A program made the position numbers and the translations under genes. Shown here piece by piece: positions 1 through 6,669 of a stretch of 6,669 nt of DNA. The notes beneath the pieces were generated by a model. It saw nothing but the letters and a program-made list of their open reading frames with translations. It made no database searches and was not told the DNA's origin. The first letter of the stretch is position 1. The number at the start of each line of letters is the position of its first letter. Origin of the DNA: a virus (Duplodnaviria; Heunggongvirae; Uroviricota; Caudoviricetes); IMG/VR virus record IMGVR_UViG_2711768007_000014; one strand, written 5' to 3'.

Positions 1-152
1 AATACGGGAATACATTGAGATTTTCTACAATCGTCAGCGTCGTCACTCTCGTCTGGGGAATATCTCCCCGGCAGCCTTCAGGGAAAAATATCATCAGATG
101 GCTGCTTAAAAAAAGAACAAATGGTAGTGTCCGCTATTGCCAGTACACCTCA
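1..152 (+). mobile_element. Right-end fragment of an IS3-family insertion sequence (3' end of transposase gene plus terminal sequence ending ...CA at 152); cut by the window edge
   Basis: Positions 1-152 are a perfect reverse complement of 6518-6669 (verified base by base; identity breaks at 153/6515). The region encodes a transposase C-terminus with the IS3-family signature. The element terminus reads ...CCTCA, i.e. the complementary end would begin TGAGG..., consistent with IS3-family TG...CA termini. Exact IS name not recognised. Confidence 0.75.
2..109 (+). CDS. IS3-family transposase (OrfB/integrase-core) C-terminal 35 codons, 5'-truncated by window edge
   Basis: Frame 2 translates to IREYIEIFYNRQRRHSRLGNISPAAFREKYHQMAA followed by TAA at 107-109. 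The FYNxxRxHSxLGxxSPxxF motif is the conserved C-terminal tail of IS3-family DDE transposases. Confidence 0.75.
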   Translation: MREYIEIFYNRQRRHSRLGNISPAAFREKYHQMAA

Positions 153-334
153 GGATAGCGGTCATGTGATGCCGGTTTCCCGGTAACTCAGCACCGGTAT
201 CTGAGTCAACGTTTTCTCTACTGGGTCATTTCCGATACGCCCTGCCTGCTGACAGGCTTTCATCACATCTGAAAATATAGCACCCTGACTGATACTGTAG
301 TACCTAAGGTTCCAGAAACTGTGATGTATCCGGC

Positions 335-360
335 ACAGAAAAGCCCCTCCGGAGAGGGCT
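335..360 (-). terminator. Weak terminator-like hairpin (imperfect palindrome AGCCCCTCCGGAGAGGGCT) followed on the minus strand by UUUUCU
   Basis: Imperfect inverted repeat at 342-360 with a short A-run at 339-342 on the plus strand (a U-run on the minus-strand transcript). Only a 5-bp clean stem and 4 U residues, so weak. Confidence 0.3.
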
Positions 361-556
361 GGAGAGTGGCGCTATGTGCCATTGCATGATGCCGGGTGCC
401 TCCCGGTGAATTCAGTACCAGCACCTGAATCCGCGATTATCCCATATACCTACTCGCTGATTGCCCCTCCGCACAGGGGGATTCACCATGCCAGTTTCTT
501 TTAACAAACTCCCCGCAAAACAGACAACTGTCAACCGTCTGAATTGTGAGACATTT

Positions 557-582
557 AAAAAAAAGGCCCGCAAAAGCGAGCC
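557..582 (-). terminator. Rho-independent terminator immediately downstream of the tRNA cluster
   Basis: On the minus strand: 7-bp GC-rich stem (GGCUCGC/GCGGGCC with one G-U pair), 4-nt loop, then 8 consecutive U (plus-strand A-run 557-564). Sits 15 nt after the 3' CCA of the last tRNA. Confidence 0.6.
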
Positions 583-596
583 AGGGAAAATAAGTG

Positions 597-673
597 TGGC
601 GCGTTGTACTGGATTCGAACCAGTGACCGATTGCTTAGAAGGCAATTGCTCTGTCCGGCTGAGCTAACAACGC
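597..673 (-). tRNA. tRNA-Arg, anticodon UCU (reads AGA/AGG); argO-like phage tRNA
   Basis: Minus-strand sequence GCGTTGTTAGCTCAGCCGGACAGAGCAATTGCCTTCTAAGCAATCGGTCACTGGTTCGAATCCAGTACAACGCGCCA folds as a cloverleaf: 7-bp acceptor stem, GCTC/GAGC D-stem, anticodon stem ATTGC/GCAAT, loop CUUCUAA (anticodon UCU), T-arm ACTGG-TTCGAAT-CCAGT, encoded CCA. Confidence 0.85.
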
Positions 674-686
674 ATGATGCAGATAA

Positions 687-763
687 TGGACCGCCATCGG
701 GGACTTGAACCCCGCGCAGCCAGCTTCGAAGGCTGGCGCTCTTTCCTGATGAGCTAATGGCGG
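687..763 (-). tRNA. tRNA-Arg, anticodon read as UCG (reads CGA/CGG); argN-like phage tRNA
   Basis: Minus-strand sequence CCGCCATTAGCTCATCAGGAAAGAGCGCCAGCCTTCGAAGCTGGCTGCGCGGGGTTCAAGTCCCCGATGGCGGTCCA. Acceptor stem CCGCCAT/ATGGCGG, anticodon stem CCAGC/GCTGG, loop CUUCGAA (anticodon UCG), T-arm CGGGG-TTCAAGT-CCCCG, encoded CCA. D-loop is atypical (ATCAGGAAA). Confidence 0.75.
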
Positions 764-770
764 TATGTGA

Positions 771-846
771 TGGTGGCCCTTGCTGGATTTGAACCAGCGA
801 CCTGGCGATTATGAGTCGCTCGCTCTCACCACTGAGCTAAAGGGCC
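771..846 (-). tRNA. tRNA-Ile2 type (anticodon CAU, probably lysidine-modified to read AUA); ileZ/ileX-like
   Basis: Minus-strand sequence GGCCCTTTAGCTCAGTGGTGAGAGCGAGCGACTCATAATCGCCAGGTCGCTGGTTCAAATCCAGCAAGGGCCACCA. Near-identical in architecture to E. coli ileX as I recall it; anticodon loop CUCAUAA; encoded CCA. Could formally be an elongator tRNA-Met. Confidence 0.85.
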
Positions 847-886
847 GGGAGCCGCATAATAACGACGCGTAATTAATTCTTCAATA

Positions 887-1945
887 TCATCCGTTCTGGC
901 TGACTAAATCCTGTACTTCCCGAACCGTCTGCTCAAAACGTTCAGTCTCCAGCTCAACGCCAATTGCACGACGCCCGAGCGCCAGTGCCGCTTTCACTGT
1001 CGAACCCAACCCCATGAAAAAATCTGCAATCAGGTCACCCGGACGACTGCTAGCGCTGATTATCTGCTGCAGCATTTCTGCCGGTTTTTCGCACGGATGT
1101 TTCCCGGGATAGAACTGCACCGGTTTATGCGTCCACACATCGGTATACGGCACCTGCACCGTCACGCCAAAATACCGCCGCAGATGTTTATATTCACTCA
1201 GCAGCTCCGCATACTGCCGGTTCAGTGAGGTATACGTATCCACCAGCTGGTGGTGGAGCTTTTCCAGTTCACCACGCCGATGCTTCTCTTCTGCCACCCG
1301 GGCAAACAGCGCCTGTAATTTCAGATAATCGCTTTCATTCGGCAACTGCCACTGACCGGCACTGAACCAGTGCGACACCATGTTTTTCTTTCCTGTGGCA
1401 TCTGCAATCTGTTTTGCCGTTATCCCCAGGGCAGCTCGCGCATCACGAAAGTAAGAAATCAGCGGGGCCATCACATGCTGTTTCAGTGCACTGCCCTTCG
1501 CCGCATACCCGGCATCTTTCGGACGATACGGCCCCTGATAATGTTCCGCGAACAGAATGCGCTCTGTGGCGGGGAAATACGCCCGCAGGCTTTCCTTGTT
1601 GCATCCGTTCCAGCGTCCGGACGGCTTCGCCCAGATAATATGGTTCAGCACACTGAAGCGTTCACGCATCATGATTTCGATATCAGATGCCAGGCGATGA
1701 CCACAGAACAGGTAAAGACTTCCGGCAGGTTTCAGCACCCGCCAGAACTGCGCCAGACACTGGTCCAGCCACTTCAGGTAATCATCGTCGCCCTTCCACT
1801 GGTTATCCCAGCCCTCAGGCTTCACTTTAAAGTACGGCGGGTCCGTGACTATCAGGTCAACAGAATTTTCGGGTAACGACCGGATAAATTCCAGGCAGTC
1901 GGCGTTGATTAACTCACAACTGGATATTTTTACAGTATTAAGCAT
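887..1945 (-). CDS. DNA methyltransferase, N6-adenine/N4-cytosine beta-class (DPPY catalytic motif N-terminal, FxGxG AdoMet motif C-terminal); orphan
   Basis: 352-aa ORF. Motif IV DLIVTDPPYF near the N-terminus and motif I DFFMGLGST near the C-terminus give the circular-permuted beta-class order. No restriction endonuclease candidate in the window. Confidence 0.9.
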   Translation of the reverse strand: MLNTVKISSCELINADCLEFIRSLPENSVDLIVTDPPYFKVKPEGWDNQWKGDDDYLKWLDQCLAQFWRVLKPAGSLYLFCGHRLASDIEIMMRERFSVLNHIIWAKPSGRWNGCNKESLRAYFPATERILFAEHYQGPYRPKDAGYAAKGSALKQHVMAPLISYFRDARAALGITAKQIADATGKKNMVSHWFSAGQWQLPNESDYLKLQALFARVAEEKHRRGELEKLHHQLVDTYTSLNRQYAELLSEYKHLRRYFGVTVQVPYTDVWTHKPVQFYPGKHPCEKPAEMLQQIISASSRPGDLIADFFMGLGSTVKAALALGRRAIGVELETERFEQTVREVQDLVSQNG

Positions 1946-2037
1946 GGATCATTAAGCCTGTCTCTGATAGGCTCATTCTGCTTTTGCGCAAAGCAGTGGG
2001 CCTGAGGTTTGCTTGTGAACCCAACGCATGAGCAGAT

Positions 2038-2068
2038 GGCTGGTGGGTGCCCCTAACACCCACCAGCC
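2038..2068. repeat. Perfect 12-bp inverted repeat (GGCTGGTGGGTG ... CACCCACCAGCC) with a 7-nt loop, in the 5' leader of the methyltransferase gene
   Basis: Arms at 2038-2049 and 2057-2068 are exact reverse complements. No adjacent U-run on either strand, so it is not a canonical intrinsic terminator. A second palindrome (CTGCTTT-TGCGC-AAAGCAG) lies at 1978-1996, about 35 nt upstream of the methylase start. Confidence 0.5.
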
Positions 2069-2080
2069 GCCCATTTACCA

Positions 2081-2109
2081 CAAATAAAAAAGCCTTCACT
2101 GCGGAAGGC
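2081..2109 (-). terminator. Rho-independent terminator overlapping the stop codon of the small HTH ORF
   Basis: On the minus strand: stem GCCUUC/GAAGGC with loop CGCAGU, followed by UUUUUUAUUU (plus-strand A-run 2083-2090). Confidence 0.5.
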
Positions 2110-2293
2110 GTCTGTAACAACCGAACTGATAGTCTGCCAGACCCGCCATAACCAGCTGGGTCAGTATTAACTGGCAGCGTTCGCGTGAAAGGTAAGTATT
2201 CTGCGCTATCTCCCCGACTGTCGCCGGTTCGGTAACGCTTAATTCATTAAACACCACTCTGGCGGTTTCTGTCATATCCTGCTGTTTTAGCAT
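2096..2293 (-). CDS. Small hypothetical protein (65 aa) with helix-turn-helix-like segment
   Basis: ORF with AGGA-type ribosome binding site upstream. The segment ATVGEIAQNTYLSRERCQLILTQLVMAGL resembles a winged-helix/HTH recognition region. Not hydrophobic, so not a holin. No family recognised. Confidence 0.45.
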   Translation of the reverse strand: MLKQQDMTETARVVFNELSVTEPATVGEIAQNTYLSRERCQLILTQLVMAGLADYQFGCYRRLPQ

Positions 2294-2410
2294 GTCTTTT
2301 CCTTTTCCGGTTAACGTGACACACCAATAACTCTTGTCGAAAAAGCCAGCAAGCTGAAAGACAGGTATTCACCGCCACCAGCGCGTTTACTGTACTGACG
2401 CGATTTCAGT

Positions 2411-2437
2411 CATAAAAAACCCGCTCGGCGGCGGGTT
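2411..2437 (-). terminator. tR'-like intrinsic terminator about 80 nt downstream of the Q stop codon
   Basis: On the minus strand: stem ACCCGC/GCGGGU with a 6-nt loop, followed by UUUUUUAU (plus-strand A-run 2414-2419). Position relative to Q and the promoter below matches the lambdoid pR'-qut-tR' layout. Confidence 0.6.
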
Positions 2438-2484
2438 GTAGAAACTCTTCTAACGTCAGGCATAAAACGCCCATCGTTATAACG

Positions 2485-2512
2485 AATTTACCACAGATTC
2501 CGGAAAAATCAA
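2485..2512 (-). promoter_or_regulatory. pR'-like late promoter (-35 TTGATT, 16-bp spacer, -10 TAAATT preceded by TGG) starting 6 nt after the Q stop codon
   Basis: Sequence match to sigma-70 consensus on the minus strand (-35 at 2507-2512, -10 at 2485-2490). A short leader of roughly 65 nt would run to the terminator at 2411-2437, as expected for a Q-modified late promoter. Not experimentally verifiable from sequence. Confidence 0.5.
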
Positions 2513-2517
2513 CCTTG

Positions 2518-3339
2518 TTACCTAGTTACCTTTTTTAACTGCCGCTCAGCCCATGCTTCTTCAATATCAAACCGGGTCACCAGCGCATCATAAAATTTCT
2601 TAACTGTTTTTTCCCATGACGCGCGTGTTATCTGGTTTGTCACCTCGCATATAGCATTAAATGCCTCCGTTGATGGTAGTCTTTCATAGCCACGACCACC
2701 ACAACGCTGGCAGTCTCTGATAACAGGCATACCACGTTTTACCGACTCTTCACGATGAATGGCGACACCACGCCCACGGCAATCCTTACAGGCGGTGGAA
2801 ACCTCACCCTTTCCGCCACACTCCGGACAGGCAACTTTTACCACCTCCCTGACTTTTTTCCATTCTTCCCAGTAAGACGGATACACACCTTTCGTACACT
2901 TTGCCCATACCGGCGGCTTACCATCCGGATACTGGATCTTGTTTGTAAAAACCTCGCTTTCAATAAATTTTTTTCCGTGACAGCAGGGGCACTGTTTTTT
3001 GCTCGCCGCGCTACGGGCATAATCTTCAAACGCATACGAAGCCATAATACGCATCACTGCCGGTTTTATTTCTGCCGGGAGTTTTCTTAACGCCGCCACG
3101 CGATCACACCGACTGAGTGCATATTCTGTCAGCAATTCTGTTGCCCGCTCTCTGTCATTCATACTAATGCCCATTTTCCCAAGGAACGCAGAAACCCCCA
3201 TCTCAGCCCGATTCTGTGTCATGCCCTGCGCGGCCATCACATCAGTGATACTCAGCGCATCTTTCGACGTTGAGGCCGATGCATCAGTCAGGCCGGGGGA
3301 TTTTGGGGAGTAGTATTTCGGTAAATCTTCCAGTTTCAT
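2518..3339 (-). CDS. Q-like late-gene antitermination protein with four CxxCxGxG zinc-finger repeats
   Basis: 273-aa ORF immediately downstream of rusA (ATGA overlap) and immediately upstream of the pR'/tR'-like signals. N-terminus MKLEDLPKYYSPKSP resembles the Qin-prophage Q homologue (QuuQ) as I recall it. Contains CPCCHGKK, CPECGGKG, CKDCRGRG and CQRCGGRG repeats. Confidence 0.7.
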   Translation of the reverse strand: MKLEDLPKYYSPKSPGLTDASASTSKDALSITDVMAAQGMTQNRAEMGVSAFLGKMGISMNDRERATELLTEYALSRCDRVAALRKLPAEIKPAVMRIMASYAFEDYARSAASKKQCPCCHGKKFIESEVFTNKIQYPDGKPPVWAKCTKGVYPSYWEEWKKVREVVKVACPECGGKGEVSTACKDCRGRGVAIHREESVKRGMPVIRDCQRCGGRGYERLPSTEAFNAICEVTNQITRASWEKTVKKFYDALVTRFDIEEAWAERQLKKVTR

Positions 3340-3716
3340 TTTTTGACCTGCCCTTCAAGCATTATGGGATAAATCTTCACCCCCAGACGTCCACCAGATA
3401 CTGGCTGAGCACGAACGATATTGATTTCATCAAACTGCTCATCGTCCATTAGCAACCCCGCATGCGTCAGCGCATCCAGCGGCGCTTTCAGAATATTGTC
3501 CAGGTCACGGCGGCGCTTATCCGGTGGTTCTGCAATAATTTTTATTGCCAACCTTCCGGACAGGCTTAATTTCAGCCGCTGCTGGCGAACAATAAGCGCC
3601 ACTGCCCGGCGATAACGCTCCCCGGCTTTTGATACAAAATATGTGCTGCCACGACGACGCCAGTAAGTGTTCACCGTCGGCGGGTAAGGTAAAACAAATT
3701 CTATGCGCTCGGTCAT
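3336..3716 (-). CDS. rusA: Crossover junction endodeoxyribonuclease RusA (Holliday junction resolvase)
   Basis: 126-aa ORF. Strong recognisable similarity to E. coli RusA along the whole length (LPYPPTVNTYWRRRG..., ...DKRRRDLDNILKAPLDALTHAGLLMDDEQ..., GGRLGVKIYP). Stop overlaps the Q start. Confidence 0.85.
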   Translation of the reverse strand: MTERIEFVLPYPPTVNTYWRRRGSTYFVSKAGERYRRAVALIVRQQRLKLSLSGRLAIKIIAEPPDKRRRDLDNILKAPLDALTHAGLLMDDEQFDEINIVRAQPVSGGRLGVKIYPIMLEGQVKK

Positions 3717-4775
3717 TTATGCTTTCCACTTCAGAACACCCGAATTTCTCGCGTGCATTAAAAAACGAATCAGCAACAACAGCTGACTGCCGTGTTTCTC
3801 TTCAAAATCTTTTACTCCGGCATGTAGTTCGTTACGGCATTTACGGCATAACGGAATAACAAACAAATCATCAGCCTTTGTTCCCATCCCTCCCAGTCCA
3901 TGACCAATGATGTGATGCGGATCATCTGCCTGATTGCCACACGTCATGCATTTCTGCGTTTTTACCCAGCGCGTGTATACAGGCATCTCTTCCCGTTGTG
4001 ATTTCTGGCGCTGGAGATACTGAGCCGGTGACTCCGGATCAACGGCAATGCTGACCACCGTCTTTTCCTGTGGTGGGTTCTGTTGCTGGTGGACGTGAGG
4101 CAGTAACGCAATATTTTTTGTGCGCTGCTTCAGTATGCTGGTGGCTGTCTGCTCTCCCGGTATGATGTCGCTTTCACTGTACACAGAGCGAATTTTTTCC
4201 GCACGCAACCCCAGCGAACGACGTAATACCGCTTCCGGTAGCGCGTCCGCCACCTGATTGCGGACCGCCCACCAGGATAATTCAGCCAGAGATAATTCAC
4301 GCTCCTGCGTACCGCTTATTGCGTGACCGATGACGTCAATCATCCATGCTGACAGGTTTTGATGAGCAAGTTGCTCGAGTGATTCGGATGTCTGGTCACG
4401 CAGCTGGTTGTCGCAGTGCCAGCACAACACCATTGCGCCGGTACCATAACGGTGAATGACGGTTTCGCTGTGATGATAATCGCCGTGTGGCCACTGGCAG
4501 GATTTAATATGGCGCAACAGCCAGTCAGACAATGCACCAGCACCACCAGCAGCACGAATCACCCGTGCGTTACTGAAAAACGGCAGCAATGTTTTGTCTT
4601 CCACCAGCGGCTGGCGAGCGGCAGGAACGACCCCGGACGGCAGATTACGCATGCTTTTTGGTTCCGGCTCCACCAGTATTCTGCCGTTATGGAATGCTGA
4701 CATTGATTCACGGCCTGGCTTAACGATAACCAGACCGAGTTCCGGTACCAGAACAGGTCGAAGTAATACCCGCAC
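3717..4775 (-). CDS. DUF968-type prophage protein (YdfU-like) with C-terminal HNH-like Cys/His motif; putative nuclease
   Basis: 352-aa ORF starting at GTG 4775 (an internal ATG at the MSAFHNGRIL residue is an alternative start). C-terminus has C-x2-C ... HH ... C-x2-C ... H spacing (CMTCGN...DPHHIIGH...CRKCRNELH). Position between the nin small genes and rusA matches ydfU in the Qin prophage. Stop abuts the rusA ATG. Confidence 0.6.
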   Translation of the reverse strand: MRVLLRPVLVPELGLVIVKPGRESMSAFHNGRILVEPEPKSMRNLPSGVVPAARQPLVEDKTLLPFFSNARVIRAAGGAGALSDWLLRHIKSCQWPHGDYHHSETVIHRYGTGAMVLCWHCDNQLRDQTSESLEQLAHQNLSAWMIDVIGHAISGTQERELSLAELSWWAVRNQVADALPEAVLRRSLGLRAEKIRSVYSESDIIPGEQTATSILKQRTKNIALLPHVHQQQNPPQEKTVVSIAVDPESPAQYLQRQKSQREEMPVYTRWVKTQKCMTCGNQADDPHHIIGHGLGGMGTKADDLFVIPLCRKCRNELHAGVKDFEEKHGSQLLLLIRFLMHARNSGVLKWKA

Positions 4776-4776
4776 A

Positions 4777-5132
4777 TTACCTCCAGATCCGTTGCTGGAA
4801 TGTGCGGGACGGACGCGTTGGCCGTTCGGAGTAAGGGAGCCTGACGGAGATTATCCAGTGACGGTAGTCGAGGCTAAGGGCTTTTTTAACCTCGCATCCG
4901 CGCCTGCGGTAACACTGAATGAGCCATTCGGCCTGTTCTTCAGTGCATGGGGGATGCTGGTACCAATCAGATTTAAATGCGTGAGAGCGCCGCCCGTGCC
5001 TGCTGGCAAAGACGGCTGAATTATCAGAATTGTGTAGTCTGGAAGGCAGTGGCTGACAATAGCGCCATTCTCAACGCGCACAGTATAGAGGCCATCTTCA
5101 CTAAAAATTTCACGTAATTCTTCGATTTTCAT
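4777..5132 (-). pseudogene. Hypothetical gene apparently disrupted by a 1-nt frameshift (N-terminal part in one frame, protein-like C-terminal part in the -1 frame with no start codon)
   Basis: ATG at 5130-5132 with a good GGAAGGA ribosome binding site gives MKIEELREIFSEDGLYTVRVENGAIVSHCLPDYTILIIQ..., then decays into low-complexity sequence. The overlapping frame encodes ...HGRRSHAFKSDWYQHPPCTEEQAEWLIQCYRRRGCEVKKALSLDYRHWIISVRLPYSERP..., ending at a TAA (4777-4779) that overlaps the downstream start region. That frame has no ATG/GTG/TTG back to its upstream TGA. Confidence 0.45.
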
Positions 5133-5214
5133 CAACAGAATCCTTCCAGATAAATAGCACTCCCCTGTTCGGGGTCCATCCCTCTTCTCCCTGCGCGCTA
5201 CTTAAGTATTTTTG

Positions 5215-5244
5215 ATTCTATTCCGGCACCATCTAAAACTTCAA
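5215..5244 (-). promoter_or_regulatory. Candidate sigma-70 promoter (-35 TTGAAG, 18-bp spacer, -10 TAGAAT) upstream of the frameshifted gene/DUF968/rusA/Q operon
   Basis: Consensus-like hexamers on the minus strand between the hok terminator and the next ribosome binding site. Sequence match only. Confidence 0.25.
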
Positions 5245-5249
5245 ACGCG

Positions 5250-5283
5250 TTGAAAATAAAAACAAAAACCCGCCGAAGCGGGT
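5250..5283 (-). terminator. Rho-independent terminator of the hok mRNA
   Basis: On the minus strand: stem ACCCGC/GCGGGU closed by a UUCG tetraloop, followed by UUUUGUUUUUAUUUU. Confidence 0.65.
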
Positions 5284-5352
5284 TAAGTGTGGGTGCATTG
5301 AGGATGCCTGCCCCATCAGAGGTGGCGAGGGATTTCTCCCCCGCCTGGTCTC

Positions 5353-5508
5353 TTACTCCTCAGGTTCGTAAGCTGTGAAGACAGCGACCTCCGTCTGGCC
5401 GGTTCGAATTCGTACCTCGCAGAGGTCTTTCCTCGTTACCAGTGCCGTCACTATGACGGTTAAACAGATGACGATCAGGGCGATTAACATCGCCTTTTGC
5501 TGCTTCAT
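5353..5508 (-). CDS. hokD: Hok-family type I toxin (51 aa), HokD/RelF-like
   Basis: Translation MKQQKAMLIALIVICLTVIVTALVTRKDLCEVRIRTGQTEVAVFTAYEPEE matches the Hok family (single transmembrane helix, conserved C...C and TAYE tail) and, from memory, HokD/RelF. An upstream ATG at 5565 with a GAGG ribosome binding site (mok-equivalent) is in frame with hok here, so the ORF track shows a 70-aa extended ORF 5353-5565. Confidence 0.9.
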   Translation of the reverse strand: MKQQKAMLIALIVICLTVIVTALVTRKDLCEVRIRTGQTEVAVFTAYEPEE

Positions 5509-5584
5509 AGCCTGCTTCTCCTTGCCTTTCGGCACGTAAGAGGCTAACCTAGATTTGCCGTTCATAGATTGAGCCTCAGATTAA

Positions 5585-5660
5585 TGTTAAGCGTCTTGCC
5601 GGACGCGTAATGTTAACTGGGGCTTTTCTCTATCTGCCTTTTGGTGTTCATGCCTGAGAC
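5585..5660 (+). ncRNA. Putative Sok-like antisense RNA complementary to the hok mRNA leader (boundaries approximate)
   Basis: Inferred from the hok/sok paradigm. The hok leader here (minus strand, ...GGGTGCTTGAGGCTATCTGTCTCAGGCATGAAC...) resembles the plasmid R1 hok 5' end. I could not confidently map the sok promoter or terminator; a possible promoter is TTGCCG-N19-ATTAAT near 5555-5585. Confidence 0.3.
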
Positions 5661-5683
5661 AGATAGCCTCAAGCACCCGCTGC

Positions 5684-5711
5684 AATTCTACTTAACTCTC
5701 CTTTTCCCGCA
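5684..5711 (-). promoter_or_regulatory. Candidate hok promoter (-35 TTGCGG, 16-bp spacer, -10 TAGAAT); predicted start near 5676
   Basis: Consensus-like hexamers placed so that the transcript would begin at GGGTGCTTGAGGC, which parallels the R1 hok mRNA 5' end (GGCGCUUGAGGC). Transcript to the terminator would be about 420 nt. Confidence 0.4.
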
Positions 5712-5719
5712 AACCGTTT

Positions 5720-5803
5720 TTATCCCCAGCGGCAAATCGAATACACCACCAGCGCCACCGCCATCGCAATTCCTACCGTTGTTAATGCTTCAGGCCAGGT
5801 CAT
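5720..5803 (-). CDS. 27-codon hydrophobic small ORF ([27 protein letters not shown]), start overlapping the stop of the upstream ORF (ATGA)
   Basis: ATG overlaps the TGA of the 114-aa ORF. Hydrophobic core [16 protein letters not shown] is compatible with a membrane-inserted peptide. Its 3' end overlaps the candidate hok promoter. Below the ORF-track size cutoff; could be fortuitous. Confidence 0.3.
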
Positions 5804-6144
5804 CGTAAAATATCCTCCACGCTTATCAGTCCGTTCCGCTCCAGATAACTCATCGCCTTATCCGGTAATTTGCAGTCTGGCTTCGCTTTCCTCAGTTGCC
5901 AGGTTAACTGCTTTACCAGCATGGTTAACTCATCGACCAGACGCTGATATCCCACTGGTTTGTATTCATGCAATTTACCGGCTGGCTCTGCTGCCAGCGA
6001 TACCAGTGCGATTTCCAGAACAGCAATATCCATCTTATATGTGCGGATGATGTCATGGTCGATTGTGCCCGGTATGCACAGTCTCTGTGCTTCAATAGTC
6101 TCCTCTGCGTGAGCTATTAACTGCTCTCTGGTAAAAGTCGTCAT
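5800..6144 (-). CDS. Hypothetical protein (114 aa), paralogous in its N-terminal half to the upstream 55-aa ORF
   Basis: ORF with start overlapping the upstream ORF stop (ATGA). Shares MTT(F/I)T(R/K)E and (E/D)(L/I)A...IAL(V/A)SL(A/E)AEP with the 55-aa ORF. No family recognised. Confidence 0.55.
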
Positions 6145-6308
6145 GCCGTAGCCCCTTCTTGATATTTTTCAAACCAGAACACAACCGGCTCTGCTTCCAG
6201 CGATGCCAGCGCAATCCGTGCCAGTTCCATTTGTTCACCACGGGTAAGCCCGTTTTCAAGCGGGTTTTTAATGAACAATTCAATACGTTCTTTGGTAATA
6301 GTGGTCAT
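6141..6308 (-). CDS. Hypothetical small protein (55 aa; [55 protein letters not shown])
   Basis: Not in the ORF track (below size cutoff); found by manual translation. Perfect Shine-Dalgarno AAGGAG 5 nt upstream of the ATG at 6308; stop overlaps the next ORF start. Paralogous to the first half of the 114-aa ORF. Confidence 0.5.
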
Positions 6309-6318
6309 GTGTTACTCC

Positions 6319-6517
6319 TTAACCCGCAGTGCTTTCAACTGATGAGGGGAACAAAATCTTTTCATCAAACCCTGCATTCATATCATGAACAGCAACACAC
6401 CAATCCATCGACGAACGATTATCAAGAGCCTCCATGATTTCATCCATGCGGCGTAGGTCATACAGGTAAATGCTTTTATCGCCAATGGTGTAAAAGCCAA
6501 TTTTTTTCGGTGATGGA
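6319..6517 (-). CDS. Hypothetical ORF whose reading frame stays open up to the IS junction; possibly the 3' portion of a gene interrupted by the IS
   Basis: The track ORF 6319-6549 begins inside IS-derived sequence. The prophage-derived part encodes ...PSPKKIGFYTIGDKSIYLYDLRRMDEIMEALDNRSSMDWCVAVHDMNAGFDEKILFPSSVESTAG. Internal Met codons could instead be the true start. No family recognised. Confidence 0.35.
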
Positions 6518-6669
6518 TGAGGTGTACTGGCAATAGCGGACACTACCATTTGTTCTTTTTTTAAGCAGCCATCTGATGATATTTTTCCCTGAAGGCTGCC
6601 GGGGAGATATTCCCCAGACGAGAGTGACGACGCTGACGATTGTAGAAAATCTCAATGTATTCCCGTATT
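6518..6669 (-). mobile_element. Second copy of the same IS3-family right end, in inverted orientation; cut by the window edge
   Basis: Exact reverse complement of 1-152. Confidence 0.75.
6561..6668 (-). CDS. IS3-family transposase C-terminal 35 codons (second, inverted copy), truncated by window edge
   Basis: Mirror image of the 2-109 partial CDS; identical translation ...IEIFYNRQRRHSRLGNISPAAFREKYHQMAA. Confidence 0.75.
   Translation of the reverse strand: MREYIEIFYNRQRRHSRLGNISPAAFREKYHQMAA

Follow-up and report, generated by a model that had tools for sequence, protein, structure and literature searches.

Does an insertion sequence (IS) lying a short way past a phage tRNA cluster mark the place where a toxin operon or lysis genes were lost? 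The question is raised by a stretch of 6,669 nucleotides from a tailed-phage record (IMG/VR record IMGVR_UViG_2711768007_000014), called the window below, in which three minus-strand tRNA genes are followed by non-coding DNA and an IS end. A first-pass annotation, made from the letters alone, had read this arrangement as IS-mediated loss or displacement of the downstream cargo and late genes, leaving a prophage remnant with an intact late regulatory front end. Comparison with related chromosomes bears out the remnant and the front end, but places the damage at other IS copies.

Source and relatives of the window

Seven Shigella sonnei chromosomes align to the window from end to end with 99.95-99.97% identity (BLAST; 2-3 mismatches), and an exact-string search for the whole window in the fetched S. 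sonnei chromosomes gave no match. Compared with ten S. sonnei chromosomes the window has two private SNPs, A at 2481 (G in the others) and C at 5311 (A in the others); its own isolate is therefore not among the chromosomes compared. Judged from these alignments, the window represents 6.4 kb of a defective lambdoid prophage carried in the S. sonnei chromosome. It consists of a 6365-bp segment between two inverted IS600 right ends (1-152 and 6518-6669), mutually 100% complementary over 152 nt, and its bounds are probably those of a short-read contig that breaks at the IS600 repeat.

Among the loci compared, L007 is S. sonnei 53G (HE616528), a lineage II strain (PMC5447701), L013 is the Stx2a phage Stx2a_F723, L014 is Escherichia coli TUM10008 and L011 is CP029794.1; the IS-bearing S. 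sonnei loci among the matches listed are L003-L006 and L008-L010 (n = 7). A search of complete E. coli genomes retrieved no copy of the IS-flanked segment with its IS ends, the best match covering 339-6517 at 96.8% identity. Positions 153-900 are nevertheless found, over at least 80% of their length, in 617 of 5426 E. coli genomes. In the prophages of E. coli O121 and UTI89, which carry no stx, the order is Q, a hypothetical gene, methylase, three tRNAs, about 975 bp of non-coding DNA, an esterase gene (or its remnant), holin, ydfR, lysozyme, Rz and terminase. From Q through ydfR, the prophages of S. sonnei 53G and E. coli O121 are collinear over 5402 bp with 98.4% identity.

Several side observations concern these relatives. 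In E. coli TUM10008, whose prophage is 96.8% identical with homology beginning only at 339, the tRNA-to-esterase interval is filled by the anti-adapter gene iraM (L014 3634-3969). Relative to S. sonnei 53G and L012 the window has a 250-bp deletion at 5044/5045, in the region of a Rem-like ORF; the deletion is present in every chromosome that carries the IS600 copy of window 1-152, and the two may mark one lineage. At positions where other strains have a complete IS1 or IS600, the L011 chromosome (4.54 Mb, about 0.3 Mb shorter) retains no more than pieces of IS genes; its assembly may have collapsed the IS copies. L011 lacks the IS at the site under study, but its IS genes are fragmentary, and it was therefore left out as evidence for an empty site.

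The late-operon front end

On the minus strand the window has the order Q, tR'-like hairpin, 65-aa ORF, N6/N4 methylase and tRNAs, the lambdoid late arrangement that the first-pass annotation had recognised. The elements ahead of the tRNAs are the following.

2518-3339, minus strand: late antiterminator Q, 273 aa (PF03589; annotated as 'antitermination protein' in loci L001 and L002)
2485-2512, minus strand: candidate pR'-like promoter, TTGATT-N16-TAAATT, beginning 6 nt past the Q stop codon (read by eye)
2418-2437, minus strand: tR'-like intrinsic terminator, about 80 nt 3' of Q (terminator scan)
2096-2293, minus strand: conserved hypothetical ORF, 65 aa (198-nt homologue annotated in L001 and L002)
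887-1945, minus strand: DNA methyltransferase, 352 aa (PF01555, N6_N4_Mtase; homologue annotated as DNA-methyltransferase in L001)

The pR'-like site did not reach the scan threshold and is therefore putative. The private SNP at 2481 sits 4 nt past its -10 element. Terminator-like sites are abundant in this part of the window, with 10 in positions 1-3400 compared with 3.1 ± 1.7 in shuffled sequence. In lambdoid phages, Q acts at pR', after which RNA polymerase reads through tR' and later terminators. By analogy with this biology, the methylase, tRNAs, sRNAs, esterase and lysis genes would be transcribed as one Q-dependent late unit.

RusA, a DUF968 protein and a hok/sok module are encoded upstream on the same strand. 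The sok antisense RNA gene (5503-5678, minus strand; 112.4 bits) overlaps the start of the hok-family toxin ORF (5353-5565, minus strand; PF01848), and the pair is a type I toxin-antitoxin module of the hokD type, as in related E. coli prophages. A methylase protein identical to that of the window is encoded on S. sonnei chromosomes; in the sequence index it is found mostly on contigs of 2-10 kb.

The ileZ-argN-argO cluster

The three tRNA genes and the signals around them are listed in the direction of late transcription.

856-884, minus strand: promoter-like sequence TTGAAG-N17-TATTAT, its -10 element ending 10 nt before ileZ (consensus match only)
771-846, minus strand: tRNA with anticodon CAU, ileZ homologue (ARAGORN; Rfam; 76/76 positions identical to Stx2a_F723 ileZ)
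687-763, minus strand: tRNA-Arg (UCG), argN homologue (ARAGORN, tcg; Rfam; 73/77 identical to Stx2a_F723 argN)
597-673, minus strand: tRNA-Arg (UCU), argO homologue (ARAGORN, tct; Rfam; 76/77 identical to Stx2a_F723 argO)
565-582, minus strand: intrinsic terminator past the cluster, GGCTCGC-tttt-GCGGGCC followed by T8, with a 7-bp stem of which 6 pairs are G-C (scan; the hairpin is conserved in the Stx2a phage)

Rfam scores for the genes at 597-673, 687-763 and 771-846 are 70.1, 58 and 72.5 bits, respectively, against a gathering score of 29. The CAU tRNA is called Met by ARAGORN and tRNA-Ile in RefSeq and phage records (homologues in L001 and L002). The cluster of Ile(CAU), Arg and Arg genes, their homology to ileZ-argN-argO and the terminator behind them were thus correctly named by the first-pass annotation. 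The tRNA names themselves come from phage record annotations, and a literature search found no paper linking ileZ, argN or argO with stx. The cluster lies in the late region, with Q upstream and, in S. sonnei, the holin gene 3.8 kb downstream (2.5 kb once the IS is subtracted).

The sequence at 856-884 is possibly the tRNA operon's own promoter, as its match to the consensus suggests. If so, the tRNAs would additionally be made from this site (884-856), with transcripts ending at the 565-582 terminator. From what is known of lambdoid phages, these tRNAs are predicted to decode the rare codons AUA, CGA and AGA/AGG; for the CAU tRNA, a reading as Ile would presuppose lysidine modification.

STnc100 units between the tRNAs and the esterase

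The first-pass annotation had about 400 bp of non-coding DNA between the tRNAs and the IS. The length holds, the interval 153-596 being 444 bp; the interval is, however, not featureless, containing as it does an sRNA gene of the STnc100 family.

331-520, minus strand: STnc100-family sRNA gene (RF02076; Rfam 123.6 bits against a gathering score of 47; 206/206 model positions matched)
342-360, minus strand: the terminator hairpin of this STnc100 unit (terminator scan)
153-292, minus strand: 5' part of a degenerate, weak STnc100-like unit, separated by IS600 from its terminator hairpin

STnc100 has been reported to be a PasD-related sRNA of prophages that is linked to esterase genes (bioRxiv 10.64898/2026.05.13.724894); it overlaps the Hfq-binding sRNA EcOnc27 (PMC12711010) and, in Stx2 phages, is found 75 nt past the stx2B gene (PMC12370729). 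The unit of Stx2a_F723 scores 207.7 bits, and the AsxR sRNA gene adjoins it on the opposite strand.

In S. sonnei 53G, where the stretch is uninterrupted, the tRNA terminator is followed by unit A (window 331-520), a weak segment of about 180 nt with a terminator, unit C and the esterase. Unit C, which lies just upstream of the esterase and beyond the IS in IS-bearing strains, scores 152-161 bits (L003 13159-13370; L007 11893-12102; 161 in 53G). With this second, better-scoring STnc100 beyond the IS, prophages of this type therefore carry the sRNA gene in tandem copies. The segment in the middle (L007 11654-11827) reaches 30.1 bits with an E value of 1.9e-4, under the gathering score of 47, and aligns loosely to the other units; its terminator, with a 9-bp stem, is at L007 11798-11821 and starts 5 bp past the insertion point. 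A third STnc100 unit at 153-292 was accordingly considered and kept as weak, its score of about 30 bits being below the curated threshold and its alignment loose.

Taken with the other prophages, the tRNA-to-esterase interval appears to be a variable cargo slot. To the more specific reading that the slot is modular, holding a 1.33-kb stx2AB cassette in the Stx2a phage, iraM in TUM10008 and two to three STnc100-type units here, one of them cut from its terminator by IS600, we give only a slim chance; on that reading, if the predicted sRNA array is regulatory in S. sonnei, a lineage-specific IS insertion could alter that regulation.

IS600 at 1-152 is a clean insertion

The IS3-family end that the first-pass annotation had noticed belongs to IS600.

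1-152, plus strand: right (3') end of IS600 ('IS-B'), with the last codons of the transposase orfB (stop codon at about 106-108) and the terminal inverted repeat ...CCTCA (100% identical to an IS600-family element in L001)
153-155: one copy, GGA (TCC on the phage sense strand), of a 3-bp target-site duplication, the other copy flanking the IS at its opposite end, beyond the window

The end of a gene annotated as 'IS3-like element IS600 family transposase' is 100% identical to 1-152. In S. sonnei chromosomes the full copy is 1264 bp long, has the termini TGAGGT...ACCTCA and is 100% identical to an annotated IS600 on the 53G plasmid. The IS transposase runs antisense to phage late transcription, and the insertion point falls 5 bp short of a terminator hairpin, with one high-scoring STnc100 unit on either side.

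Strains without this copy preserve the site as it was. The filled site reads GGAAGGA-[IS600]-GGATAGCGG, with a single GGA in the empty site of L007 and L012. On the phage sense strand, the empty site of S. sonnei 53G (L007) and L012 is ...GCTATCC/TTCCAGG..., that is ...GACCGCTATCC/TTCCAGGCCC..., and the filled chromosomes have ...ATCC-[IS600]-TCC-TTCCAGG...; the 1264-bp IS600 and the 3-bp repeat are the whole difference. Since 53G, of lineage II, lacks this copy, the insertion is polymorphic in S. sonnei, a species in which IS600 is actively expanding (PMC7373316).

Had the IS taken cargo or lysis genes with it, these should be missing on its far side. Instead, an intact 617-aa DUF1737/SASA esterase of the nanS-p type (PF08410/PF03629) follows in 7/7 IS-bearing chromosomes among the matches listed, as do a 71-aa class II holin (PF04971) and ydfR (PF07041), again in 7/7 among those listed; no stx is found there in these relatives. 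Once the IS is subtracted, the spacing of the esterase, holin and ydfR equals that in 53G and E. coli O121. The 1-152 copy thus lacks the marks of an IS-mediated adjacent deletion, its duplication being present and no sequence missing in comparison with IS-free relatives. An insertion into intergenic DNA without deletion was what the first-pass annotation itself had said would speak against its proposal, and this is what the comparison with 53G and L012 shows.

The empty site, the 3-bp duplication and the collinear downstream genes together mean that nothing was deleted at the 1-152 junction: IS600 inserted in non-coding DNA between the tRNAs and the nanS-p esterase. For the window's own isolate, the DNA past the IS is deduced from the closest relatives, because the window stops inside the IS and that isolate is not among the chromosomes compared.

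In strains with the insertion, late transcription from pR' would have 1.26 kb of antisense IS to traverse before it arrived at the esterase and holin genes. Such a crossing would probably be without consequence for phage production, because the prophage seems unable to complete lysis or assembly in any case.

We also considered a composite transposon, in which the inverted IS600 pair would have moved the 6.4-kb segment between them. This candidate was rejected: the 1-152 copy inserted independently, with a duplication to itself and an unoccupied site in 53G, and the sequences outside the pair, TTT and TCC, do not form a duplication.

Position of stx2AB in a related Stx2a phage

Alignment with Stx2a_F723 locates where a toxin operon would stand. 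Window 556-997 aligns to L013 4998-5438 (92%) and window 463-553 to L013 3575-3665 (81%); the intervening 1332-bp block consists of stx2AB and its promoter, with stx2A and stx2B at L013 3707-4947.

553-556: point matching the stx2AB block of Stx2a_F723, seamless in the window (TTTTTTTTAAATGTCTCACAATTCAG, minus strand)

In Stx2a_F723, stx2AB thus lies between the tRNA terminator and the STnc100 unit; the matching point in the window is about 400 bp from the IS. The tRNA cluster does lie upstream of stx2AB in Stx2a_F723, as the first-pass annotation had it for Stx phages, but the toxin genes map to about 553-556 and not to the IS junction at 152/153. At 553-556 the alignment with Stx2a_F723 reveals no remnant of stx or of its promoter, and the window is collinear there with the non-Stx prophages of O121 and UTI89. 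No stxA or stxB ORF is present in the window or among the called genes of ten 21-kb S. sonnei loci, and no stx-type domain occurs within 21 kb around the locus in the loci listed. A toxin operon was never demonstrably present here.

Losses at the other IS600 copies

The prophage is a remnant, as the first-pass annotation had proposed; its losses lie at two other IS600 copies, and the copy at 1-152 is harmless to genes. One of the two forms the other end of the window.

6518-6669, minus strand: second, inverted IS600 right end ('IS-A'), 100% complementary to 1-152 and without a target duplication

IS-A, flanked by AATTTT and TCCATC, has the marks of an IS-mediated adjacent deletion: on one side of it is a DUF977 gene and on the other an 87-aa gene that has lost its 5' end, and small early-region genes of E. 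coli TUM10008, amounting to about 1.7 kb, are absent beside it. The 87-aa phage gene is intact in TUM10008. A 76-aa ORF at 6319-6549 (minus strand) is a fusion, its first ~10 codons coming from the IS600 end and the rest from the 3' two-thirds of that gene.

Next to the lysozyme gene, 3.5 kb past the tRNAs, is the third copy; it too is without a target duplication and has the marks of an adjacent deletion. Only about 18 recognisable codons of lysozyme are left (MSAKIKYGLSAAVLALIA...) before the sequences diverge (L007 14919-15254; L003 16187-16357). Beyond this copy there are IS21 and tail genes in 53G and tail-fibre assembly genes in other strains. As read from these alignments, the lysis and head genes are lost at the third IS600 copy.

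Weighing the explanations

We hold with high confidence that the locus is the late front end of a defective S. sonnei prophage with a clean 1264-bp IS600 insertion between the tRNAs and the esterase, with esterase, holin and ydfR beyond it and no toxin operon demonstrable. That the IS removed or displaced cargo, whether stx or other, and the lysis genes, leaving the regulatory front end behind, might be suggested by the mere 444 bp that separate the tRNAs from the IS end within the window and by the degraded state of the prophage elsewhere, where the third IS600 cuts the lysozyme after ~18 codons and head genes are absent. This is made extremely improbable by the exact empty site that 53G and L012 retain and the duplication at the filled site, by the intact esterase, holin and ydfR past the IS (7/7 among the matches listed), and by O121 spacing that is equal without the IS, with the stx2AB block mapping ~400 bp away. 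A toxin operon lost at an earlier time and at another point, that is, an stx that once stood between the tRNA terminator and STnc100 and was excised precisely, could draw on the tRNA module, whose identity to its Stx2-phage counterpart reaches 100%, and on the stx2AB that the Stx2a phage has at this very boundary. Given a seamless junction collinear with the stx-negative O121 and UTI89 prophages, the presence of at least 80% of 153-900 in 617 E. coli genomes, and the absence of an stx or promoter remnant at the boundary and of stx-type domains in the 21 kb around the locus, we regard it as scarcely credible.

A different alternative accepts the clean insertion and has recombination between IS600 copies rearrange the locus afterwards in the window's own isolate, so that the IS end may there join different DNA. 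The partners could be the inverted copies at the two window ends or the third copy 3.5 kb downstream. The window does end in identical 152-nt IS ends and matches none of the chromosomes compared exactly, and the upstream context at other IS600 and IS1 copies varies (L006 and L010 against L003). The order across this particular IS is nonetheless constant in all IS-bearing chromosomes inspected, the window itself bears no sign of rearrangement, and a contig ending in repeats is the usual product of short-read assembly; such a rearrangement is quite unlikely. The prophage type is common in E. coli; where the Stx2a phage compared has stx2AB, one STnc100 and the esterase, it has sRNA genes plus the esterase.

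In a short contig, an IS end close to phage tRNA genes is thus no evidence that cargo was lost. All components of the locus are already known and annotated in public records, and its importance beyond correct annotation is small. S. sonnei has many polymorphic IS600 sites, of which this is one, and the insertion could be used to mark a lineage. One modest gain is that the stx2AB block of a single Stx2a phage is placed exactly with respect to the tRNA terminator and STnc100.

Comparison with known systems

The Stx2-converting and other lambdoid phages (Stx2a_F723, PA28 and phage 86 among them) share with the window the three tRNAs, their order and strand, 95-100% identity, the matching terminator hairpin and the location of the cluster downstream of Q and upstream of the lysis genes. 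Unlike in the Stx2 phages, the terminator here runs directly into an STnc100 unit, without stx2AB, and whereas the annotated Q of Stx2a_F723 has 144 aa, the Q here is of the 273-aa PF03589 type. With the STnc100 family (RF02076) and PasD-type sRNAs, the unit in the window has in common a full-length covariance match, a terminator and a location between Q and the esterase; the difference lies in number, two full units and one degenerate unit in tandem here, where the Stx2a phage has just one, behind stx2B. IS600, an IS3-family element, is matched in all features without any difference: the 1264-bp length, the TG...CA ends, the 3-bp target duplication and a transposase encoded in two overlapping frames, of 100 aa and 272 aa or fused into 385 aa. 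The stx-negative prophages of E. coli O121 201805972 and UTI89 are 97-98% collinear from Q to ydfR, including the ~975-bp non-coding stretch with its STnc100 units. In comparison with these prophages, which keep the rrrQ lysozyme, the S. sonnei copy has, in some lineages only, an IS600 in the non-coding stretch, and its lysozyme and head genes, along with part of the early region, are gone at the other IS600 copies.
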